A DNA stretch of 64,000 nucleotides, taken from the NCBI RefSeq assembly GCF_003019035.1, contig NZ_CP027447.1. One strand, written 5' to 3'. The DNA comes from Escherichia coli. Its GTDB lineage: Bacteria > Pseudomonadota > Gammaproteobacteria > Enterobacterales > Enterobacteriaceae. The position numbers and the translations under genes were made by a program. How positions within the stretch are numbered: the first letter of the stretch is position 1; the number at the start of each line of letters is the position of its first letter. This document shows, piece by piece, positions 1-46,502 of the stretch. Under the pieces are notes generated by a model. It saw nothing but the letters and a program-made list of their open reading frames with translations, was not told where the DNA came from and searched no databases.

Positions 1-172
1 GTTTTCGTACTGCCATAAAAAATGCCCTCCAGTAGAGAGCATTTTCACTGTATGTATAACCAGTGTCAATGTATGAAATCCTACGACCATACATCTCACT
101 GAAGCCATAATTAAGTTGGCTATTCTTTTTGCTATGTGAGCATGTAACTTTTGCGGTTAACCTGCGGCTCAT
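1..172 (-). CDS. partial ORF (N-terminal part only, runs off left edge); product unknown
   Basis: Minus-strand ATG at 172-170 opens a frame with no stop through position 1 (57 codons). Absent from the ORF track because it has no stop in the window. No family recognised; weak RBS. Confidence 0.2.
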   Translation of the reverse strand, partial: MSRRLTAKVTCSHSKKNSQLNYGFSEMYGRRISYIDTGYTYSENALYWRAFFMAVRK

Positions 173-204
173 TTTTATTTTAGGCGCAGATATAAAAGCA
201 AAAG

Positions 205-396
205 TTATCGTGAGTTTTTAGTACAGATTTTTTTGGATTTACTAATAGTTCCATCATTGCAAACGAATTTGCCATCTGAGGTACAGTGAGAAACACCTCC
301 CTTTTTCCCTGAACAGGGATAATTTCTAGCATAGGTAGTTAGTGGGTTTAATAACAAAGAACATGAAAAAACCACAAAAAATACCTTACCAAGCAT
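205..396 (-). CDS. small Cys-rich protein with signal-peptide-like N-terminus (63 aa), downstream of cI
   Basis: Strong RBS (GGGAGGA) 6 nt before ATG; hydrophobic N-terminus [16 protein letters not shown]; 5 Cys; starts 15 bp after cI stop on the same strand. Confidence 0.45.
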
Positions 397-411
397 AGTT
401 TCCTCCCGGTA

Positions 412-987
412 CTATTTAACATACTTGACTGTTAAACTTATAATTTTACCAATTATTTCAATGTCTTCTATCTTGCATTCGAACGCTCTGTTTCCACCCT
501 CGACGAAGATTCTTCCACCGGGTAAACGAGTAATGTCACGGATCGTTATTTCACCATCAATACTTATTACCCATTTACCATCACGTATATCATCAAATTC
601 CTTATCACAAATAAATTCAGAATTATTATCTGTGATTACAAAAAGACTCTTGAATGCCGACGGTAGAAATCCCCTATCGAAAATATAAAAACCGTCTTCA
701 CACAAGGCACCATCAGATAATACATATTTAGCAACTTCCATAGTATTTGTATTACCTGAAGTTTGCTTTGAACCATGTCCGGTTGTGAGCCAATTAAGCG
801 AGGTGCCCGTTTCAAGGGCGCATTGGATTACCCATTCTGCTGGGAATGAGTCACGCATGTAGCGTGTGGCGAGTGTACTTTTAGAGATTCCTAAATGATC
901 GCACAACGCCTGTCGAGTTTTGAATCCATAAGCTTCTACCATGCGCTCTATAGCGCCTCGTCCGCCTTTCTCCAAATTCATGGTCAC
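412..987 (-). CDS. cI: CI-type immunity repressor (186-like size, 191 aa)
   Basis: Helix-turn-helix-like segment (TRQALCDHLGISKSTLATRYMRD); divergent from the early operon; position and length as in coliphage 186 cI. Confidence 0.75.
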   Translation of the reverse strand: MTMNLEKGGRGAIERMVEAYGFKTRQALCDHLGISKSTLATRYMRDSFPAEWVIQCALETGTSLNWLTTGHGSKQTSGNTNTMEVAKYVLSDGALCEDGFYIFDRGFLPSAFKSLFVITDNNSEFICDKEFDDIRDGKWVISIDGEITIRDITRLPGGRIFVEGGNRAFECKIEDIEIIGKIISLTVKYVK

Positions 988-1005
988 TCCAAGTGAACTT
1001 TTATC

Positions 1006-1034
1006 TTGACGATTTCACTGTGCGATCGTATGTT
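1006..1034 (+). promoter_or_regulatory. candidate early lytic promoter (TTGACG-N17-TATGTT)
   Basis: -35 TTGACG at 1006-1011 and -10 TATGTT at 1029-1034 in the cI/apl intergenic region, upstream of the rightward early operon. Confidence 0.35.
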
Positions 1035-1106
1035 TATGATGTTCACAAAATACAAACGATCCGTATTCGTCCTGATTAATCATCATTAAACGAGGAATGT
1101 TGCATC

Positions 1107-1328
1107 ATGAGACCTAACATTTCAATCACTCTTACCACGCCTCATGTGACTATTGAACGCTATAGCGAGCTGACAGGGCTGTCCATCGATACCATCAATG
1201 ACATGTTGGCTGACGGACGCCTTATCCGTCACCGTCTGCGCAAAGATAAAAAACGCGAAAAAGTGATGATCAACATAGCAGCCATGACCGTTGATGCGCT
1301 TTCAGAATGCAATCTAAACCTTAATTAG
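1107..1328 (+). CDS. Apl/Cox-like small early regulator (73 aa)
   Basis: First gene of the rightward early operon, opposite cI; small basic protein. Assigned by position, not by a recognised motif. Confidence 0.45.
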
Positions 1329-1354
1329 TTCGATTCTGAAATACATCAGAGGCA

Positions 1355-1870
1355 TTGACCATGTTTGATTACCAAGTTTCCAAACATCCACATTTTGATG
1401 AAGCCTGTCGTGCATTCGCACTGCGCCACAACCTGGTGCAACTGGCAGAACGTGCGGGCATGAATGTGCAGATTCTGCGGAACAAGCTGAACCCTGCTCA
1501 ACCTCATTTATTAACCGCACCAGAAATCTGGCTGCTTACCGATCTGACTGAAGATTCAACGTTGGTAGATGGTTTTCTGGCACAGATTCATTGTCTGCCA
1601 TGTGTACCGATTAATGAGGTGGCAAAAGAGAAACTGCCGCATTACGTCATGAGCGCAACTGCAGAGATCGGGCGTGTTGCAGCAGGTGCGGTATCTGGTG
1701 ATGTAAAAACCAGTGCCGGTCGTCGTGATGCTATCAGCAGCATTAACTCTGTAACACGACTGATGGCGCTGGCTGCTGTTTCATTGCAGGCCCGTTTACA
1801 GGCTAATCCTGCGATGGCGAGTGCAGTTGATACCGTGACTGGCCTCGGTGCTTCATTCGGTTTGCTGTGA
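1355..1870 (+). CDS. cII: CII-like lysogeny establishment regulator (171 aa)
   Basis: Second gene after the apl-like gene; length matches 186 CII (~169 aa). Confidence 0.6.
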
Positions 1871-1877
1871 GGTGCTT

Positions 1878-2174
1878 ATGCTGACGAAAGAACCATCATT
1901 TGCATCGCTGCTGGTAAAACAAAGTCCGGCAATGCACTACGGTCACGGCTGGATCATGGGTGAGGATGGTAAACGCTGGCATCCGTGCCGTTCACAAGAT
2001 GAATTGCTGTCTGAATTGACCACGAGGAAACGGAGAAAGTCCAAATGTATGCGGCAGAAAATGAAGTGGTTTATCACTTTCGTTACAGAGGGGAGAATTA
2101 TTCAGTACCTGAAGATGATTTGCTCTGTTGCTATCCGTCGTTGTCGGGCGATGGTAGCTACTTTTTCACGCTAA
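1878..2174 (+). CDS. hypothetical early protein (C-terminal part may be out-of-frame read-through)
   Basis: ATG at 1878 preceded by GAGGTG RBS, just after cII stop; the last ~40 codons overlap the next ORF and look non-protein-like. Confidence 0.3.
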   Translation: MLTKEPSFASLLVKQSPAMHYGHGWIMGEDGKRWHPCRSQDELLSELTTRKRRKSKCMRQKMKWFITFVTEGRIIQYLKMICSVAIRRCRAMVATFSR

Positions 2175-2269
2175 AGGATGGAACCTTTATACGTGGTGAA
2201 AAAGTACAAGAAGTGATGCGTATAAAGACATCACCTCTTGAACGTTATCGGCGAAATATTTATCGGTAA
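2045..2269 (+). CDS. hypothetical phage early protein (74 aa)
   Basis: ORF with a protein-like composition in the early operon; no recognised motif. Confidence 0.4.
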   Translation: MYAAENEVVYHFRYRGENYSVPEDDLLCCYPSLSGDGSYFFTLKDGTFIRGEKVQEVMRIKTSPLERYRRNIYR

Positions 2270-2508
2270 CGATCTATCAGTGTCTGTATCAGATGAGTGA
2301 ATTCTTGTTGTTTAACCGAACCTAAAGGAAGTTTGTTTAATTCTTCGCGGAGGAGCTCAAAAAATGCTGATTGATTTGCTGAGTCAGTTCGAAATAAGGA
2401 GTGGATCAGACCTGAAACAAGAATTCGTTGAACAGCAACCTCATCGCGAAGACTGGAGATCTCGTTTTCAAGTTGCTCTATACGCTCTCTTTCAACCGGG
2501 TTCAACAT
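2260..2508 (-). CDS. hypothetical coiled-coil protein (82 aa), antisense to the early operon
   Basis: Minus-strand ORF with heptad-like composition (ERERIEQLENEISSLRDEV); the overlapping plus-strand ORF 2364-2627 looks spurious. Confidence 0.35.
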   Translation of the reverse strand: MLNPVERERIEQLENEISSLRDEVAVQRILVSGLIHSLFRTDSANQSAFFELLREELNKLPLGSVKQQEFTHLIQTLIDRYR

Positions 2509-2590
2509 TGATGATTCCTTCTAGCTATCAATATGTTGGTAATGGATCATATCAAAAATTTTTTAGTAGATGTGTTGTGGGGATGCATAA

Positions 2591-2932
2591 ATGGCTATTG
2601 AAAGCGCTGCGGCGACTGTTCCATTAAGCCCCGGCGAACGCCTGAATGGACTTAATCACATAGCGGAATTAAGGGCGAAAGTTTTTGGCCTGAATATTGA
2701 GTCAGAGCTTGAGCGGTTTATTAAAGATATGCGTGATCCACGGGATATCAATAATGAACAAAATAAACGGGCACTGGCTGCTATATTCTTTATGGCAAAA
2801 ATTCCAGCTGAACGTCATAGCATCAGCATTAATGAGCTGACCACTGACGAAAAGCGGGAGCTGATTAAAGCAATGAATCATTTTCGTGCAGTGGTGAGCT
2901 TATTTCCCAGACGGCTAACCATGCCGAATTAA
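2591..2932 (+). CDS. hypothetical phage early protein (113 aa)
   Basis: ORF in the early operon between cII and dam. Confidence 0.5.
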   Translation: MAIESAAATVPLSPGERLNGLNHIAELRAKVFGLNIESELERFIKDMRDPRDINNEQNKRALAAIFFMAKIPAERHSISINELTTDEKRELIKAMNHFRAVVSLFPRRLTMPN

Positions 2933-2993
2933 CCAACTAATGAAATTAATGGCGTAAACCCGCCGGGCATCCCTTTATCTAAATTCAGGAGAA

Positions 2994-3233
2994 TTGATTA
3001 TGCGTAATATTGAAACCCTCTCGACCAAAACCGGACCGGATGACGCAGGGCTTAATATTTTACTGACAGAAGCTCGTCTGGAAGAACGCCGGGCAAGGGC
3101 TGAAGCAATGGCAGCTCGCCTTGATAGCCTGGCGTGTCATATCACATCCCGCCAGCTAACCCACGTCGAAGCGGCAGAACTGCTTCGTGTGACTGCTGAA
3201 GCAATCCAGAACGAAGCGCAGGAGATCCACTAA
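2994..3233 (+). CDS. hypothetical phage early protein (79 aa)
   Basis: ORF in the early operon; end overlaps the next gene start (ATGGCTGA). Confidence 0.5.
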   Translation: MIMRNIETLSTKTGPDDAGLNILLTEARLEERRARAEAMAARLDSLACHITSRQLTHVEAAELLRVTAEAIQNEAQEIH

Positions 3234-3460
3234 TGGCTGATGCAATGGATCTCGTACAGCAGCGCGTTGAAGAAGAACGCCAACGCCATATCCGTGCTGC
3301 CCGTGCCAAAACGCCGGGCGTGTCCCGCGTGCTTTGCATTGAGTGTGAAGCGCCAATTCCGCCAGCACGCCGCCGTGCCATTCCGGGTGTGCAGCTTTGC
3401 ATTACCTGTCAGGAAATCGCAGAGCTGAAAGGCAAACATTACAACGGAGGTGCTGTATGA
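3233..3460 (+). CDS. TraR/DksA-type C4 zinc-finger protein
   Basis: CxxC-N17-CxxC motif (CIECEAPIPPARRRAIPGVQLCITC); typical P2-family early gene. Confidence 0.7.
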   Translation: MADAMDLVQQRVEEERQRHIRAARAKTPGVSRVLCIECEAPIPPARRRAIPGVQLCITCQEIAELKGKHYNGGAV

Positions 3461-4314
3461 GCACCATCCTGAAATGGGCGGGAAATAAAACTGCCATAAT
3501 GTCCGAACTGAAAAAACATCTTCCTGCTGGCCCGCGACTGGTTGAACCTTTCGCGGGTTCCTGTGCTGTGATGATGGAGACGGATTATCCCAGCTATCTG
3601 GTTGCGGATATTAATCCTGATTTAATCAACCTCTATAAAAAGGTTGTCGCTGATTGTGAATCGTTTATATCTCGCGCCAGAGTTTTATTTGAGAACGCAA
3701 ACAGGGAGATGGATTATTACAACATAAGGCAGGAGTTTAATTACTCAACTGAAATTACTGATTTCATGAAAGCGGTATATTTCCTGTATCTCAATCGTCA
3801 CGGTTACCGTGGTTTATGTCGCTATAACAAGAGCGGGCATTTCAACATTCCCTACGGTAATTATAAAAATCCGTATTTCCCTGAAAAAGAAATTCGCGCA
3901 TTTGCAGAGAAAGCCCAGCGGGCAACGTTTATCTGCGCCAGCTTTGATGAAACGCTGGCGATGCTGCAGGTGGGGGATGTGGTGTATTGCGATCCGCCTT
4001 ATGACGGCACGTTTTCCGGTTATCACACTGACGGCTTCACTGAAGATGACCAGTATCATCTGGCATCCGTTCTTGAGCATCGGTCATCAGAAGGACATCC
4101 GGTCATTGTTTCTAACAGTGACACATCCCTGATCCGTTCGCTGTATCGCAATTTTACTCACCACTACATCAAGGCAAAACGCAGCATCGGCGTAGCAGCT
4201 GGTGAGAGTAAATCTGCAACAGAAATCATCGCTGTTTCTGGGGCACGCTGCTGGGTGGGATTTGATCCTTCGCGTGGCGTGGATAGTTCTGCTGTGTACG
4301 AGGTGCGTGTATGA
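3457..4314 (+). CDS. dam: DNA adenine methyltransferase (Dam family)
   Basis: DPPY catalytic motif (VYCDPPYDG) and AdoMet-binding-like EPFAGSCAV; GGAGG RBS; ATGA overlap with upstream gene. The ORF-track start 3397 was rejected as an N-terminal over-extension. Confidence 0.85.
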
Positions 4315-6725
4315 GTCATGACGATATGAGCAACTCTAGCGGCTTTAACGAGGCCGCTGCATCATTTTCATGGAACGGCCCGAAAAAGGCCATTAACCCT
4401 TATCTGGACCCGGCGGAAGTTGCGCCGGAGTCTGCACTTTCAAACCTGATCACTCTGTATGCTGCCGATAACGAGCAGGAACAACTGCGCCGCGAGGCAC
4501 TGAGTGAGCAGGTCTGGGAGCGTTATTTCTTTAATGAATCCCGTGATCCTGTCCAGCGCGAAATGGAGCAGGATAAGCTCATTAGCCGGGCAAAGCTGGC
4601 GCATGAGCAGCAGCGTTTTAATCCAGACATGGTCATTCTGGCTGACGTCAACGCCCAGCCTTCCCATATCAGCAAGCCGCTGATGCAACGTATTGAATAC
4701 TTCAGCAGCCTGGGCAGGCCAAAGGCTTATTCCCGCTATTTGCGTGAGACGATTAAGCCATGTCTGGAACGACTGGAGCATGTACGCGACAGTCAGCTAT
4801 CCACTTCTTTTCGCTTTATGGCAAGCCATGAAGGGCTGGACGGCCTGCTGATCCTGCCTGAAATGAGTCAGGATCAGGTGAAACGCCTGTCTACCCTTGT
4901 CGCTGCGCATATGAGCATGTGTCTTGATGCCGCTTGTGGTGATTTGTACGCCACCGATGATGTTAAGCCAGAAGAAATCCGCAAGACATGGGAAAAGGTG
5001 GCAGCGGAAACCCTACGTTTGGATGTCATCCCGCCTGCGTTTGAGCAACTCCGTCGGAAAAGAAACCGCCGTAAACCAGTGCCCTATGAACTCATTCCGG
5101 GCTCGCTGGCGCGTATGCTGTGCGCCGACTGGTGGTATCGGAAATTGTGGAAGATGCGTTGCGAATGGCGGGAAGAGCAGTTGCGTGCTGTCTGCCTGGT
5201 CAGCAAAAAAGCATCTCCCTATGTCAGCTATGAAGCTGTGATGCATAAACGTGAGCAGCGCCGTAAGTCGCTGGAGTTTTTCCGTTCTCATGAACTGGTG
5301 AACGAAGACGGAGACGCGCTGGATATGGAAGATGTGGTAAACGCCAGCTGCAGCAACCCGGCGCATCGCCGCAATGAGATGATGGCCTGTGTTAAAGGTC
5401 TGGAGCTTATCGCGGAAATGCGCGGTGACTGCGCCGTTTTCTACACCATTACCTGTCCGTCACGTTTCCATTCCACGCTCAATAACGGCAGACCCAACCC
5501 GACCTGGAAAAACGCGACGGTAAGACAAAGCAGCGATTATCTGGTCGGTATGTTTGCTGCATTTCGTAAGGCGATGCACAAAGCCGGGTTGCGCTGGTAT
5601 GGCGTGCGGGTGGCTGAGCCGCATCACGACGGCACAGTTCACTGGCACCTGTTGTGTTTCATGCGCAAAAAAGACCGCCGCGCCATTACTGCATTGTTGC
5701 GTAAGTTTGCTATCCGTGAAGACCGCGAGGAGCTGGGCAATAACACGGGGCCGCGCTTTAAGTCTGAGTTGATTAACCCGCGCAAAGGTACGCCAACAAG
5801 CTACATCGCGAAATACATCAGTAAGAACATTGACGGGCGTGGTCTGGCTGGCGAGATCAGCAAGGAAACGGGGAAATCCCTGCGTGATAATGCTGAATAC
5901 GTTAATGCCTGGGCGTCTCTGCATCGTGTTCAGCAATTCCGCTTCTTTGGCATTCCGGGGCGTCAGGCTTACCGCGAACTGCGATTGCTGGCTGGTCAGG
6001 CGGCAAGGCAACAGGGGGACAAAAAAGCAGGTGCGCCGGTACTGGATAACCCGCGCCTTGATGCAATCCTGGCTGCTGCTGATGCTGGTTGTTTTGCCAC
6101 CTACATCATGAAGCAGGGCGGCGTACTGGTTCCCCGCAAATATCACCTGATCAGAACCGCTTATGAAATCAACGAAGAGCCGACCGCCTATGGCGATCAC
6201 GGCATTCGTATTTATGGCATCTGGTCACCCATTGCAGAGGGCAAGATCTGCACTCATGCAGTGAAGTGGAAAATGGTTCGTAAGGCCGTTGACGTTCAGG
6301 AGGCGGCAGCCGACCAGGGCGCTTGCGCCCCTTGGACTCGTGGCAATAACTGTCCCCTTGCTGAAAATTTGAACCAACAAGGGAAAGACAAATCAGCTGA
6401 TGGGGACTCCAGAACGGATATTACCCGTATGAATGACAAGGAGTTGCACGATTACCTGCACAGTATGAGCAAAAAAGAGCGCCGGGAACTGGCTGCAAGG
6501 TTACGCCAGGTGAAACCGAAACGGCGTAAAGACTACAAACAGCGAATTACAGACCATCAGCGACAGCAGCTCGTCTATGAACTGAAGTCCAGGGGATTTG
6601 ATGGCAGCGAGAAAGAAGTCGATTTGCTCCTTCGCGGCGGCAGTATTCCGTCAGGAGCAGGCCTGCGTATCTTCTATCGGAACCAACGTCTGAAGGAAGA
6701 TGATAAGTGGCGGAACCTGTATTAA
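4311..6725 (+). CDS. replication initiation endonuclease (P2 gpA / 186 A homolog, rolling-circle type)
   Basis: 804-aa protein with HUH-like motif (VHWHLLCF) and downstream tyrosine region (YIAKYISKN); position after dam as in P2-like phages. Confidence 0.85.
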
Positions 6726-6817
6726 TTACGCGGGTTAACAATTCGTGCTCTTAATAATACCAGGCATATCAGGCCGATGAACGTAAAAAAACGTTTTACA
6801 TCAGTAAGATTATTATA

Positions 6818-6837
6818 TACTGTAAATATAAACAGTG
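6818..6837. promoter_or_regulatory. LexA (SOS) box
   Basis: TACTGTAAATATAAACAGTG matches the LexA consensus TACTGTATATATATACAGTA at 17/20 with intact CTGT-N8-ACAG; ~40 bp upstream of the ORF at 6878. Confidence 0.6.
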
Positions 6838-6877
6838 GTTATGTATACAGTATTGTTTTGGTGTCATAGGAGGAAAG

Positions 6878-7066
6878 ATGCAGGACTATTTTTTGGAGTC
6901 TTTGAAGCTCCAGCGCATTGATTTTTTTCTTAAGCTTGTAGCGGCTAGTGAGTGTAGTGATGAAGAGAAGGGGCTGGCTCTGCAGTGGGTTTCTGAATTG
7001 ACTGATGAACTCATGGCAAAAATCAGAAGCCACGAATACAACCGCTCAATGGATGTCATCAGCTGA
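6878..7066 (+). CDS. small SOS-controlled protein (62 aa), possible Tum-like antirepressor N-terminal module
   Basis: Strong RBS AGGAGG before ATG; immediately downstream of the LexA box; followed after 10 bp by the DinI-like ORF. Confidence 0.4.
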   Translation: MQDYFLESLKLQRIDFFLKLVAASECSDEEKGLALQWVSELTDELMAKIRSHEYNRSMDVIS

Positions 7067-8236: not shown

Positions 8237-8303
8237 CGCGCGCTTATTACTTTGATAGTACTCGGGTTATAATATGGATGACTATCTATCTCGGAGAATG
8301 TGC

Positions 8304-9956
8304 ATGTCATTGGACTATATTAAAGAACAGTTGTCAGACTTTATTTCATCTGCAGAACCTGAGGTAATGGCTATTCAGGGTGAATGGGGGATTGGGAAAA
8401 CCTATACTTGGAATACTTTCTTAAAGGAAAATAAAAATAAGATTGCATTTAATAGATATAGTTACGTCTCTCTTTTTGGTGTTAATTCATTGGACGCATT
8501 AAAATATTCCATCTTTGAAAATACAATTACAAAAGATTTTATTGGAAATAAACCTAATTTAAAAACAGCAACACAAAATACAAAGGGACTTCTTGAATCC
8601 TGCACTAGAAAGACCGCTCGTTTGTTAAAAGAAACACCTGTTGTGAAAAATTTCGCTACGACACTTGAGTCAATGTCATTTATGTCAATTACTAATGTTA
8701 TTGTAGTCATAGATGACTTAGAAAGACGTGGTAAAAATTTAGAAGTGAAAGATGTCTTAGGGTTGGTTTCTTTATTGAAAGAACAAAAAAATTGTAAGGT
8801 GGTTCTTTTACTTAATAATGGGACAAGTGGTATGGATGATTACTCCACTTATAAAGAAAAGGTTATTGATAGAGAGATTACCTATAACCCTACGCCAGAA
8901 GAATGTGCAGCTATAGCATATAAAAATAATTCTGATGTTCATAAATTATTAAGCAAATACTCCATTTCTCTGGGTATTAAAAATATTCGGATACTGAAAA
9001 AAATAGAGCGGTTTTTGCTAGCCTTGTTACCTGCTATTAACGTTAATTTTGATAAAATTGCAAATGAAGTCGCACGCTCCTTAACTTTGTATTGTTGGAG
9101 TCATTACGCATTTACTCCAGATGGAGATGTACCATCATTGGAATATATTAGAAATATGAGAAATATCTATATGCGTGATGAAAAAGAGGATGGAAAAGGA
9201 AAAAAATGGCTTAATACTTTGCTTATATATGGTTATAAAAAAACAAACGAACTTGATGAAGTCCTTATAGACATGGTTAAGCATGGATATATTGATATGA
9301 ACAATTTTCAAAGGCAAGTAAGTCTAAGAAATGATGAACTTATCCGTGATAGTAAGCGAGGTTCACTGTTTGAAGCATGGAAGCTTTTCTATAATTCATT
9401 TGAAGATAACCGAAATCAGGTTGTTGATAATCTATATCAAGCGGTGGTTGGTGGGATAGAGTATGTAACTCCAAGTGACTTGGATAGTGTTGTCGGACTG
9501 TATAGAGATTTAGATGAAAATATTAAAGCAAGTGAATTAATAAGTAAATTTATTAATTACGGCAATGATGCTCTTAAGGAATATGTCCAATCTATTTACA
9601 TGAATGTTCATCCTATAAAAGATGCTGAGTTAAAGTCAAAAATCCAAGATTATTCTATTACTTTAAATCTGGATGGTTCTATAAAGGATGTTCTAATAAA
9701 ATTATCAAGTCAGAATGGTTGGTCTGATAGGCACGAGGAAATATTGGATGCTGCCTCAGAGGATGACTACTATGATTTATTTAAAAAAGTCATTCTTGAA
9801 GGTGGTGATTCAATAATAGCCACTGCTCTTAAGTTTGGTGGGTATAGCAATGGTTCAGATAGAATGAAACGCATCGGAGAAAAAGCGAGAAATGCTTTGA
9901 TAAGAATTGGAAATGAGTCGAAGATTAATAAAATACGTGTTAGACGGTATTTGTAA
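8304..9956 (+). CDS. KAP-family P-loop NTPase (standalone, ~550 aa)
   Basis: Walker A GEWGIGKT (KAP signature GxWGxGK[ST]) and Walker B VIVVIDDLERR; no obvious transmembrane insert; AT-rich; perfect TATAAT at 8268-8273 upstream. ATG 8304 chosen for RBS spacing; the track ORF begins at 8274. Confidence 0.8.
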   Translation: MSLDYIKEQLSDFISSAEPEVMAIQGEWGIGKTYTWNTFLKENKNKIAFNRYSYVSLFGVNSLDALKYSIFENTITKDFIGNKPNLKTATQNTKGLLESCTRKTARLLKETPVVKNFATTLESMSFMSITNVIVVIDDLERRGKNLEVKDVLGLVSLLKEQKNCKVVLLLNNGTSGMDDYSTYKEKVIDREITYNPTPEECAAIAYKNNSDVHKLLSKYSISLGIKNIRILKKIERFLLALLPAINVNFDKIANEVARSLTLYCWSHYAFTPDGDVPSLEYIRNMRNIYMRDEKEDGKGKKWLNTLLIYGYKKTNELDEVLIDMVKHGYIDMNNFQRQVSLRNDELIRDSKRGSLFEAWKLFYNSFEDNRNQVVDNLYQAVVGGIEYVTPSDLDSVVGLYRDLDENIKASELISKFINYGNDALKEYVQSIYMNVHPIKDAELKSKIQDYSITLNLDGSIKDVLIKLSSQNGWSDRHEEILDAASEDDYYDLFKKVILEGGDSIIATALKFGGYSNGSDRMKRIGEKARNALIRIGNESKINKIRVRRYL

Positions 9957-18375: not shown

Positions 18376-18397
18376 AAGCCAGCCTTTATTTTTTTAT
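18365..18397 (+). terminator. rho-independent terminator after S
   Basis: GGCTGGC-ATAAAA-GCCAGCC hairpin followed by TTTATTTTTTT. Confidence 0.55.
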
Positions 18398-19251
18398 GTG
18401 ATGGCCCCTATCTTTTGATTGTAATAACTATAATCAGCATGTTCTTCTGTATAAAAAATCTCAAATGCAGACAAGATGTTTGCGTAAAAACTATCCTTGG
18501 ATATAGAGGTTTTTTTATTGATGGATGCCAAAAAGTTTGTTATAAATCTTAATGATGCTGAGAAAAGAAAGTGCCCTTTCACCCAATGATTTATAGATGT
18601 ATTTTCTGGGAATTGAATGTTGTTTTTTTCTGCCAAACCATTAGTAGTAAACGATTCAGGTAGTCTATTGATATATTCATCTATTTTTTTCTTGCATATA
18701 TTGTATGAATTTCTTGATTGCATAAAACGATCACAGGAATCACCAATTACGGAGCATCCTAATTTATTTAAATGATTGTGAATATCTAGTATTATTAAGT
18801 TCTCAATGTTGCTATAGAAGTTAGAAAGCCAATTTCCTACATCTATTTCCTGCATTTTTTTTGTGCAAAAACGGCCTGTGTTTTTGAGTATGTGTGATAT
18901 GATTTTTTCATCAATGATTGTGTTTTCTATTGAATATCCCTTTGTGTAAATAATATTTGTATGCTTTACTATGTTGTCAGAAAAATGGTTTAGATCCGAA
19001 TCTCTGGCAACTATGGCGTTTATTTCTCCTGAGGTTATTTTTTCGATATATGGTTGTAAAGCTTCACATCCACCAACATCTTGAACTTCTACATTAAAAC
19101 GACCATTTTTTTTAAAAATTATTTCCCAAAAAGCAATGTCATCTTCACCTTCAACATAGACCATAATATCAGCATCATAAAATAAACTGATCACATTTTC
19201 CGCTTCATTAGACCAAGAAAAGTTTTCTGCATTAGAATCATTGATTAGCAT
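18394..19251 (-). CDS. Toprim/DUF4435-like protein (AriB-like), 285 aa
   Basis: Toprim-like acidic motifs VYVEGEDD (conserved Glu) and IVARDSD (DxD); overlaps the upstream ATPase gene by 14 bp; very AT-rich. Confidence 0.65.
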   Translation of the reverse strand: MLINDSNAENFSWSNEAENVISLFYDADIMVYVEGEDDIAFWEIIFKKNGRFNVEVQDVGGCEALQPYIEKITSGEINAIVARDSDLNHFSDNIVKHTNIIYTKGYSIENTIIDEKIISHILKNTGRFCTKKMQEIDVGNWLSNFYSNIENLIILDIHNHLNKLGCSVIGDSCDRFMQSRNSYNICKKKIDEYINRLPESFTTNGLAEKNNIQFPENTSINHWVKGHFLFSASLRFITNFLASINKKTSISKDSFYANILSAFEIFYTEEHADYSYYNQKIGAIT

Positions 19252-20494
19252 TGACTAATCTCTCCATATTGAAAATGGCGTTTTTATATTTAGATGCAAC
19301 TTCAGGAGAATGGGTTGCAGCAATAATTTGTGCATTAGGATTTAATTTTTTTATGGCAGGGATAATATTTCTTTGCCATTGAATATGTAAGGAAAGCTCA
19401 GGCTCATCAGTTAGGAAAATATATTGTTGCCCTCTTTGTAAGAGGGTCTCAATGAATAAAATTAGCAGTTGTTTTTCACCAGAAGATAAACTTTCTAAAA
19501 CTATTGGCCCATAGGTGTTATTTATGACTAACAATCCCGATTGAAAATGAAATTCTTTATCGGTGATAAAATTTCTTAGTATGCTTAAGAATTGTTCTAT
19601 TGGAGAAAATATTTTTGATGTTTTCTCTTTTGAAGTTAATGACATTTTGATTATTTTTTGTGTTTTTCTCAATGCTTCGATCGAACGAATATCAAAGCCT
19701 CTTTCACTTTTATTCTTTAATTCTGAAATGGTATTATTAATTGTTTCAACATGAAAGCTGATTTTTTTACGAATGTTTTGATCAATAGCATTTAACTGTG
19801 TGTATGCATTAAGGAGGTTTTGTTTTTCTTCCTCTTTGTTAAAGTTAATGTTGTAAGCAGGATTCTCCATATCTTCCTTGCTATAAAGTATTGATGCCAG
19901 AACCTCTTTTTGAAGTTCTAATGCGATATCTCTGGCTTTCTGGGATAGTTCAAGTTGATATTTTGTAAGTTCCTGTATTAATTCTGATAACTTATAGTCA
20001 ACAGGGTTGATAAAACGAGAGCCATATTTATCTTTAACTTCAAAATCATCACTATTTCTTAATCTGTAAACAGATAAAGAAGAAAGCGAGACTAGTTTTG
20101 CTAGTTCTGTTCTTAGTTCTTCTGTTTCATCATGCACTCTACGTCTATAACTAAGAGATATTCTTCTATCATCAGTGTTAAATAAACGAATTGTGTGTTT
20201 TTTAGATGAAAGCTGATATTCTATTTTGGAAAATGGAGATGTATCGCTTTCAAGTTTTTTGACTTTGATTGTTTTTGTCTTTTTTTTATCTTTAAGTTTT
20301 ATTTCGGCACTATTGAAATCAGCATTGTTAATACTGTCCAAATCAAGGGATAATATTGAGTGCAGAAGGTTCATAAAGGTTGTTTTACCCGTGCCATTTC
20401 GGCCTATAATAATGTTTACATCATCATTAAATGAGCAGGAACAGTTTAATCGCTGCCAAAAGCCATTAATTGTGACGCTTTGAATTTTATACAT
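19238..20494 (-). CDS. ABC/SMC-like ATPase (AAA_15/AAA_21-type, AriA-like), 418 aa
   Basis: Walker A GRNGTGKTT, ABC-signature-like LSSGEKQ, Walker B YIFLTDEPELSLH, H-loop IIAATHSPEV, with a charged coiled-coil-like insert between them. Confidence 0.75.
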   Translation of the reverse strand: MYKIQSVTINGFWQRLNCSCSFNDDVNIIIGRNGTGKTTFMNLLHSILSLDLDSINNADFNSAEIKLKDKKKTKTIKVKKLESDTSPFSKIEYQLSSKKHTIRLFNTDDRRISLSYRRRVHDETEELRTELAKLVSLSSLSVYRLRNSDDFEVKDKYGSRFINPVDYKLSELIQELTKYQLELSQKARDIALELQKEVLASILYSKEDMENPAYNINFNKEEEKQNLLNAYTQLNAIDQNIRKKISFHVETINNTISELKNKSERGFDIRSIEALRKTQKIIKMSLTSKEKTSKIFSPIEQFLSILRNFITDKEFHFQSGLLVINNTYGPIVLESLSSGEKQLLILFIETLLQRGQQYIFLTDEPELSLHIQWQRNIIPAIKKLNPNAQIIAATHSPEVASKYKNAIFNMERLVNANQ

Positions 20495-25016: not shown

Positions 25017-26054
25017 TTATATTTGCCTACCTCCTAATAAAATGTGTGAGGTGTATTTGTTGGTTTTCAATAACCTTGCTACAATTATACAGGTGGTTAC
25101 AATAAGGAAAACAAATGAAGGGGTTATGATGAGGTTATATATGAGTGGATTTTCGCATAGGTTATTAATGTTCACGTATGCCTCTATTCTGTGAAAAATA
25201 AACGACGAGATTATATAGATGGGAAAGGTGTAAGTACCGACAAAGGATGTGGCTCGTATAAATAAATTATTTTTCGTTGATAAAAATGTATAAGCATATA
25301 TAAGCGATATGCTTCCGGCGAAGCCAATGAAGTAGCGAAATATAATAATGAATGATTGATGCCAGAAATCAACATTCTCATATGTCATTTTAGATATGTA
25401 AATATAATACTCTCTATTCCATAGGAGAAGCATACCAATCCATGTTAATACGGCTAACACACCAATTTTGTGCCTATTTCTAGAGGCAAAATCTAAAATG
25501 CGATGGGCGGATATACCAGCGATAAAATAAGGGGCCATAAATTTAATTTTGTCCATATTCCAATCATCTCCATATGCAAGGGATATACTAAATATCAGTA
25601 AATAAAGCACCACAGAATATTGTTTGCTTATTGAGTGACAAATAGTATAAACAATAGATACTGCAAAGAGTGCAGAAAGGAACCAGAAGGCGTAGATGGC
25701 TCCATATCTAATATTTATTAAATTTATATCTCTTCCCACAAAAATGGATTCAGCAATGAACCATGCAATGGATGGGATTATTAACTGCATGAATTTTCTT
25801 TTGATAATTGATGATGGTTTTCTCTTGAGAGAAAAATAGAAAAGATAGCCGCTAAGCAGCATAAAAAATGGCATGTGGAAGCTGTAAATGGTAATAAATA
25901 ATGGGTTGTCAAAAAAATTGAAACTATCTTTTTTTACAAACTGAATTGAATGGCCCCACACGACAAAAATTATAGCTAATCCTTTCATTGAGTCTATAAT
26001 GGAATTTCGAGTGCTGGGTGTCTCTGTTATAATAAGATGTGGTTCGTTTTTCAT
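25017..26054 (-). CDS. acyltransferase family 3 integral membrane protein (O-antigen/LPS O-acetyltransferase-like)
   Basis: 345 aa, highly hydrophobic multi-TM; N-terminal region GLAIIFVVWGHSIQF typical of acyltransferase-3; very AT-rich; opposite strand to tail genes. Confidence 0.75.
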   Translation of the reverse strand: MKNEPHLIITETPSTRNSIIDSMKGLAIIFVVWGHSIQFVKKDSFNFFDNPLFITIYSFHMPFFMLLSGYLFYFSLKRKPSSIIKRKFMQLIIPSIAWFIAESIFVGRDINLINIRYGAIYAFWFLSALFAVSIVYTICHSISKQYSVVLYLLIFSISLAYGDDWNMDKIKFMAPYFIAGISAHRILDFASRNRHKIGVLAVLTWIGMLLLWNREYYIYISKMTYENVDFWHQSFIIIFRYFIGFAGSISLIYAYTFLSTKNNLFIRATSFVGTYTFPIYIISSFIFHRIEAYVNINNLCENPLIYNLIITPSFVFLIVTTCIIVARLLKTNKYTSHILLGGRQI

Positions 26055-45770: not shown

Positions 45771-46502
45771 TTACTGTGGGAACCACTGGTCATTGATTTT
45801 CTGATATGTACCGTCAGCTTTAATTGCTGCCAGCGCATTATTCAGTTTTTCCAGCAGAGCTTTGTTATCCGGACGTACAGCGATACCCAGGCCGGTGCCG
45901 AAGTATTGCGGATCGGTCACTTTTTCAGTCGCAACGCCCAGTTGCGGATTGGTTTTCAGCCATTCGTTTACCACTGCGGTGTCACCAAATACGCCATCAA
46001 TACGGCCATTTTTCAGATCGATAAAGGCATTCTGATAACTGTCATAGGAGACAGTTTTCACTTCCGGGTGCTGATCCTGAATATATTTCTGGTGCGTGGT
46101 GCCGTTTTCCATCCCAATACGTTTGCCTTTCAGATCGGCAAACGTTTTGTAGGTATCTTTTTTGGCAATCACGACGGCTGAGTTTTCATAGTAGGGCGTG
46201 GTAAACGATACCTGTTTGCTACGCTCCGGGGTGATATCCATACCGGAGATTACGGCGTCATATTTTCTGAATTTCAGTGACGGGATCAGGCTGTCGAACG
46301 CGTGATTCGTAAAAGTACATTCTGCCTGCATTTGTTTGCACAAGGCTTTTGCCAGATCGATATCAAAGCCGACAATCTCATTATTAGCACCTATAGATTC
46401 AAAGGGTGGATAGGTGGCTGAAACGCCAAAATTGATTTTCTCTGCGGCAGAAGCGCCGAATGCACAGGATGAAAGTAAAGCGGCAAGAACTAACTTTTTC
46501 AT
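45771..46502 (-). CDS. artJ: arginine ABC transporter periplasmic binding protein
   Basis: 243 aa from MKKLVLAALLSS (signal peptide); paralog of artI further along. Confidence 0.9.
   Translation of the reverse strand: MKKLVLAALLSSCAFGASAAEKINFGVSATYPPFESIGANNEIVGFDIDLAKALCKQMQAECTFTNHAFDSLIPSLKFRKYDAVISGMDITPERSKQVSFTTPYYENSAVVIAKKDTYKTFADLKGKRIGMENGTTHQKYIQDQHPEVKTVSYDSYQNAFIDLKNGRIDGVFGDTAVVNEWLKTNPQLGVATEKVTDPQYFGTGLGIAVRPDNKALLEKLNNALAAIKADGTYQKINDQWFPQ

Follow-up and report, generated by a model that had tools for sequence, protein, structure and literature searches.

Our analysis shows that the early operon of a 186-like prophage in Escherichia coli carries a genuine protein-coding gene under purifying selection that runs against the direction of its neighbours. 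The gene, ORF82, lies near the left end of the stretch of 64,000 nucleotides that was analysed as a whole and that we call the window. A sequence-only reading of this DNA had described an 82-aa minus-strand ORF between two plus-strand early genes, and the ORF listing agrees with it, giving an ATG start. As a gene ORF82 is not new: it is catalogued already as PHROG 26925 and as a RefSeq hypothetical protein. What it might do is a more tentative matter. Our main reading, to which we give a probability of roughly 40%, is that ORF82 is a leftward gene with its own extended -10 promoter inside the pR operon, that it forms a convergent cassette with the neighbouring gene orf74 and that it acts as a protein-binding factor in the lysogenic phase.

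At its left end the window contains the immunity and early region of a prophage of the 186 type (Peduoviridae), whose features discussed here are collected in Table 1. A gene of opposite polarity had been called unusual at this place, and the annotated record of phage 186 bears this out: every CDS from apl to A lies on one strand. Just left of cI, in a low-G+C (35%) stretch, there is also a 63-aa minus-strand ORF (205-396) with a hydrophobic N-terminus and several cysteines, for which neither Pfam nor PADLOC gave a match. Relatives have an integrase gene where this ORF sits, and the integrase of this prophage may lie past the left edge of the window.

Table 1. Features of the early region around ORF82, in window positions (a dot marks features given for neither strand in particular)
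Feature	Position	Strand	Remarks
CI repressor	412-987	minus	
apl/cox-like gene	1107-1328	plus	
cII	1355-1870	plus	Pfam Phage_CP76
fil	1878-2174	plus	Pfam Phage_186_Fil; Fil domain intact; left flank
orf74	2045-2269	plus	74 aa, phrog_4312; 3' end overlaps ORF82 by 10 nt
Hairpin, 13 pairs	2240-2207	minus	20 nt past ORF82 stop, inside orf74 coding sequence
Window-specific segment, ~316 bp	~2251-2566	.	ORF82 CDS and promoter-like region; absent from collinear 813R9 and CP019275 (pairwise alignment)
ORF82	2260-2508	minus	82 codons; ATG 2508-2506, TAA 2262-2260; member of phrog_26925
Shine-Dalgarno sequence AGAAGGA	2522-2516	minus	7 nt before ORF82 ATG; homologues have GGGG or GAGG there
CII-operator-like palindrome ATGTTGG-N13-CAAAAAT	2533-2559	.	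2/14 mismatches to pE site, identical spacing
Putative extended -10 promoter TGATATGAT	2554-2546	minus	TG 2554-2553, hexamer TATGAT 2551-2546
DUF5347 gene	2591-2932	plus	Right flank, early operon
DUF2732	2994-3233	plus	
DksA-type zinc finger	3233-3460	plus	
Dam methylase	3397-4314 (ORF)	plus	
Replication protein A	4311-6725	plus	

That ORF82 stands above chance is due to its conservation. Its length alone would not lift it there, since the first 6 kb of the window contain several ORFs of 80-117 aa that overlap known genes and are spurious. Across four lineages with 65-71% identity, which align without gaps, the differences at the three codon positions are ~16/14/50. Mean pS is 0.74 and mean pN 0.18 (pN/pS 0.25), and dN/dS amounts to ~0.12-0.17 where dS is not saturated. 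In the same four lineages the ORF82 frame holds no stop codon, and each of the five other frames holds 2-10; every frame but that of ORF82 either contains stops or has a pN/pS near or above 1. The sequence-only reading had taken the overlapping plus-strand ORF for random sequence, and this ORF (ORF87, 2364-2627, 87 aa in the ORF listing) is indeed not under selection, with a pN/pS of 1.54. The comparison with homologues and related prophages hence found the minus frame conserved and the plus frame not. It might be argued that ORF82 is a chance ORF or an annotation artefact and that the real feature is a plus-strand gene or a non-coding spacer, as ORFs of this size commonly arise by chance in the window and the ORF87 frame is open in homologues too. 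However, the product of that unselected frame varies between 73 and 87 aa, with 2-4 stops upstream of its ATG in the homologous loci, whereas the minus frame is selected and free of stops in every lineage and yields 14 cluster representatives of similar length in an exhaustive profile search. We regard this explanation as effectively refuted.

All named members of the family to which ORF82 belongs come from enterobacteria. A search of 5.8 billion proteins found homologues of 82 aa with 65-71% identity in Lelliottia and Klebsiella. The exhaustive profile search covered 1.84 billion representatives and gave its 14 family members at E <= 0.001, 13 of them 79-86 aa long and one a truncated variant of 33 aa; a weak match of the profile to a protein of 2059 aa proved to be unrelated. 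Over the full range of 28-71% identity the homologues lie at the same position and in the same orientation, with prophages of at least eight enterobacterial genera represented. The genera with named members are Escherichia, Klebsiella, Lelliottia, Buttiauxella, Pantoea, Pectobacterium and Lonsdalea, and all these members are titled 'hypothetical protein'. In IMG/VR, which we searched with an alignment of five sequences, 25 of 25 related loci, most of them near-identical, have an intact 82-aa ORF82. PGAP already calls the gene at the identical position and on the same strand (hypothetical protein WP_000934004.1), in a RefSeq record whose DNA is 100% identical over window positions 2230-2620. 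Against the phrog_26925 HMM, ORF82 aligns from residue 1 to 82 of 82 with profile positions 1 to 82 of 82 (E = 1.6e-57).

For the product we predict a three-helix protein with an N-terminal coiled-coil segment of four heptads. AlphaFold2 places helices at residues 4-40, 43-58 and 63-81 with a mean pLDDT of 78, and the first of these helices reaches a pLDDT of 80-94. The heptad-like charged composition noticed before could be traced to one a/d register, formed by I10, L13, I17, L20, V24, Q27, V31, L34 and L38, and 28% of the residues in the protein are charged. Among 16 members of the family the hydrophobic share over residues 10-38 is 76% in the a/d register and 23% at the other positions. The segment thereby combines what we asked of a coiled coil, namely hydrophobic a/d heptads, at least four of them, in a predicted helix. 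Coiled-coil segments are typical of protein-protein interaction. Searches for function returned nothing for ORF82 in Pfam, NCBIfam or PADLOC and only a family of unknown function in PHROGs. Sequence and fold searches against PDB and BFVD likewise gave nothing, and a sequence-profile search of PDB found nothing below E = 0.1. A relation to DUF2732 or DUF5347 was rejected by hhalign. In the literature that we searched (DUF5347, WP_000934004, 186 fil/dhr, P2-like morons) the gene is undescribed.

The gene on the other side of the convergent pair, orf74, is one that RefSeq misses. The record with an identical copy of the region has no CDS there, and in genomes without ORF82 PGAP extends Fil to 98 aa across orf74. 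The two frames differ sharply in their selection, pN/pS being 0.16 for orf74 and 1.64 for the Fil extension, and the C-terminal 43 codons of fil read through orf74 in the unselected frame. The RefSeq annotation is probably wrong: orf74 would be the real gene and the Fil tail an unselected read-through, so that the 98-aa model of Fil is over-extended. The predicted structure of the orf74 product is a confident fold, a small five-strand beta-barrel with a C-terminal helix. There was no match to orf74 in Pfam, NCBIfam or PADLOC, and PHROGs gave only a family of unknown function. A relation to Dhr of phage 186 was rejected by BLASTP.

In all 12 lineages examined, ORF82 is directly followed by an orf74-family ORF on the other strand, and the ends of the two genes range from an overlap of 35 nt to a gap of 8 nt. 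The pairing holds for the most distant members too (28-38% identity). The pair as a whole follows fil in the window and in lineages L005, L007, L011 and L046 and precedes it in L045 and L048; L015 and L043 have no called fil gene near the pair. Position and orientation of ORF82 are the same in distant 186-like prophages of Klebsiella, Lelliottia, Buttiauxella, Pantoea, Pectobacterium and Lonsdalea, and its homologues were found only in 186-like early regions. Across pairs of lineages, the identity of ORF82 rises and falls with that of orf74 (Spearman rho 0.85) and with that of cII (Spearman rho 0.81). The constant linkage may follow simply from overlapping 3' ends and normal phage synteny. It is moreover one-sided: ORF82 always comes with orf74, but ~520 E. 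coli genomes and phage vB_EcoM-813R9 have orf74 and no ORF82, and hence orf74 does not need ORF82 as an antidote.

Three states of this locus exist in close relatives. In Salmonella phage RE-2010 fil is directly followed by DUF5347, in E. coli phage vB_EcoM-813R9 and in CP019275 the order is fil, orf74, DUF5347, and in the window it is fil, orf74, ORF82, DUF5347. Among 5426 complete E. coli genomes, orf74 DNA is present in 585 and ORF82 in 65. The ORF82 cassette occurs together with at least two immunity regions, that with the 191-aa CI of the window and that with the 210-aa CI of strain 120899. A tblastn search of ORF82 in 50,697 phage records gave no match, an absence that is not significant since only ~16 of these records carry orf74. 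Besides the KO11FL and HBUT-L records, two RefSeq records labelled 'DH5alpha' (NZ_CP026085, NZ_CM135829) have the region at window positions 2230-2620 at 99% identity. A 186-like prophage would not be expected in genuine K-12 DH5alpha, and the strain labels may therefore be wrong.

Such a patchy distribution raises the question of origin: has ORF82 been brought in from elsewhere or has it been lost? The sequence-only reading had suggested a small moron. Of this suggestion the variable unit has held up, as ORF82 sits in a polymorphic segment of ~316 bp with a promoter-like motif, and the recent foreign origin has not. ORF82 has diverged in step with cII and orf74, its position is fixed over the whole range of identities, which speaks for long residence, and its G+C of 41% (0.41 across 2251-2625) equals that of the adjacent orf74 and DUF5347 (0.40-0.43). 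It is for these three reasons that we see in ORF82 an old resident and not a recent import; comparison of the sequences indicates a gene that co-diverges vertically within a 186-like sub-lineage and is sometimes lost. A classical moron in the full sense would be a self-contained gene, expressed from the prophage, that aids the host or excludes other phages. Its target, for instance a superinfecting phage or a process of the host, would have nothing to do with orf74, next to which it would have come to lie only by where it inserted. The rarity of ORF82 relative to orf74 among E. coli genomes is consistent with this, as are the promoter-like motif of the variable segment and, in E. coli, its hairpin and T-run. 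The same prophage has other reversed accessory genes as well, namely a pair of AAA_15/AAA_21 and DUF4435 genes, a KAP NTPase and an acyltransferase. Against it stand, besides the signs of long residence, the lack of a PADLOC match for ORF82 and the fact that the gene never turned up outside 186-like early regions. We consider a classical moron unlikely.

The accessory genes just named deserve a brief description. The pair lies on the minus strand at 18394-20494 amid phage late genes and encodes an AAA_15/AAA_21 ATPase of 418 aa and a DUF4435 protein of 285 aa, which we take to resemble the PARIS anti-phage system. Two further genes look accessory, a KAP-family P-loop NTPase at 8274-9956 (plus) between the replication gene and the portal gene, and an Acyl_transf_3 acyltransferase at 25017-26054 (minus) in the tail region.

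The spacer upstream of ORF82 is 82 bp long and non-coding on both strands. A standard two-hexamer promoter scan found nothing in this spacer; the candidate came from the comparison of homologues. In seven lineages the best-conserved block of the spacer is TGnTA(T/A)nAT, 35-37 nt upstream of the ORF82 ATG, and the flanking spacer has diverged among them. We read this block as the putative signature of an extended -10 promoter with a poor -35 region, and the latter is why the two-hexamer scan would have missed it. Transcription is predicted to start near 2540-2537, with a leader of ~30 nt. No LexA box (CTG-N10-CAG) was seen by eye in the aligned putative promoters, and the pR region and the ORF82 spacer have no common word longer than 8 nt.

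Downstream of the gene the hairpin may act like a terminator for the ORF82 transcript, or it may act for orf74 or for the early operon instead. Next to it on the minus strand comes TACTTTTTCA (2206-2197), a T-run that no lineage other than that of E. coli has. Five lineages keep the stem, and for three of these five the ORF82-sense RNA clearly gives the more stable form, because G-U pairs in it become A-C mismatches on the other strand. Relatives without ORF82 have the hairpin too, by compensatory changes (GTGATG/CATCAC versus CGATAC/GTATC). As the T-run is absent elsewhere and the hairpin is present in relatives lacking ORF82, its role as ORF82 terminator is uncertain. The hairpin sits roughly where phage 186 has its terminator tR1 according to the 186 record.

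Within the ORF82 spacer we also noted a palindrome that resembles a CII operator and overlaps the putative -10 motif. The cII start of this prophage (1361-1387) has the pE-type CII operator known from 186 (ATGTTTG-N13-CAAACAT) in unaltered form. From this one could construct a CII-controlled antisense unit like lambda paQ or pE, in which CII made early in infection would bind the palindrome and regulate ORF82 in the lysogeny decision. The palindrome closely resembles the prophage's own pE site and has its exact spacing, matches as good as this are expected by chance 0.37 times per 64 kb, and this one lies inside an 82-bp spacer. Conservation tells otherwise: at 13 homologous loci the number of mismatches is 4-7, and the site is mutated in some E. 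coli variants. CII regulation as a general feature of ORF82 was therefore rejected, and the palindrome is probably due to chance or specific to one lineage. Its geometry also fits poorly, since by our reading a pE-like arrangement would put the -10 hexamer on the Shine-Dalgarno sequence, and the overlap with both the -10 motif and the predicted start of ORF82 would mean repression and not activation. Control by CII hence appears very improbable to us. A near-perfect palindrome with the half-site spacing of the CII operator, ACGTTTG-N13-CAAACGT, lies at 46119-46145, well outside the prophage.

How might a gene of this kind be used by the phage? According to our main reading ORF82 would have an extended -10 promoter of its own within the rightward pR operon, and from there it would be transcribed leftward like cI. 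Together with orf74 it makes up a compact tail-to-tail cassette conserved across Enterobacterales. The putative promoter would face pR from a distance of ~1.5 kb downstream of it. In phage 186, pR exerts transcriptional interference on pL, and by analogy two states can be imagined here. With pR repressed by CI in the lysogen, nothing would oppose the ORF82 promoter and the gene would be expressed. Upon induction or infection, strong convergent transcription from pR would run over the ORF82 promoter, occlude it and turn ORF82 off. The product would be a small cytoplasmic protein that acts by binding another protein; as ORF82 has no DNA-binding, membrane or enzymatic signature, this is its most likely way of acting. 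With such a function ORF82 would buffer an early lytic protein in the lysogen or at the establishment of lysogeny. As its partner we favour the product of orf74 or another early lytic protein, though with the odds against it.

It might also be that the transcription itself matters most. Leftward transcripts would then collide or pair with the pR transcripts of orf74, fil and cII and in lysogens reduce the read-through that reaches the replication genes, and the peptide would be secondary. A conserved promoter motif that faces pR is in line with such antisense transcription, and so are the overlapping 3' ends of the convergent genes. Most lineages are moreover without a convincing terminator after ORF82, so that transcripts may run on into orf74 and fil. 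But transcription alone cannot explain why the protein is under strong purifying selection and fixed in length, and a search of window positions 1-7000 with Rfam gave no family for the region. We therefore think it improbable that antisense transcription is the main role.

The protein-binding reading can be taken one step further. The orf74-ORF82 pair could be an undescribed convergent module of the early operon in 186-like phages, in which ORF82 is made only when pR is silent, timed by transcriptional interference alone with no regulator of its own, and its coiled coil binds and neutralises the beta-barrel protein of orf74. The orf74 protein to be neutralised would be either the phage's own, made by leaky transcription from pR, or that of a superinfecting relative, with the effect that lysogeny is stabilised or kin phages are excluded. 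In this specific form we hold the proposal to be improbable.

As it stands, ORF82 is one more conserved hypothetical protein of a prophage that had been catalogued already. If it were truly restricted to the lysogen, it would be a compact natural case in which the timing of a gene is achieved purely by convergent transcription, and the well-studied lysis-lysogeny circuit of phage 186 would gain a new small component.

Several known systems can be set beside ORF82. PHROG 26925 and WP_000934004.1 are the same family without any difference, and every source names them 'hypothetical protein'. Toxin-antitoxin or antidote pairs resemble ORF82 and orf74 in that the two genes are small, adjacent and kept together over long divergence. 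However, the genes are here convergent and not co-transcribed, they match no known toxin or antitoxin family, and the supposed toxin orf74 is common without ORF82, even in an isolated phage. Since neither obligate co-occurrence nor co-transcription nor a toxin or antitoxin domain was found, we rejected a pair of this type.

Morons of temperate phages, a concept of Juhala and Hendrix with P2 old, tin and fun(Z) as examples, share more with ORF82. Like them it is a small extra unit in a phage operon, with its own promoter-like signal and hairpin and with variable presence, and, as with other accessory genes of the prophage, its orientation is opposite to that of the operon around it. Unlike them it bears no sign of foreign origin and lies in the early operon and not in the known accessory-gene hotspots of P2. 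Lambda paQ, the oop antisense RNA and 186 pE offer a different parallel, as they are antisense units within the lytic genes of phages that encode CII. ORF82 is such a unit too, and in one lineage only a CII-operator-like palindrome is found at its putative promoter; but ORF82, in contrast to paQ and oop, encodes a selected protein, and the geometry of the palindrome is unlike that of pE. The convergent pR/pL switch of phage 186 is the comparison on which our main reading draws. There the two promoters are ~60 bp apart and here ~1.5 kb, the leftward unit here encodes a small protein that is no repressor, and the interference is one that we infer. As in 186, where both are annotated in the phage record, a leftward promoter would face a strong rightward pR, and the same behaviour would be expected of it: to drive leftward expression as long as pR is repressed and to fall silent once pR fires.
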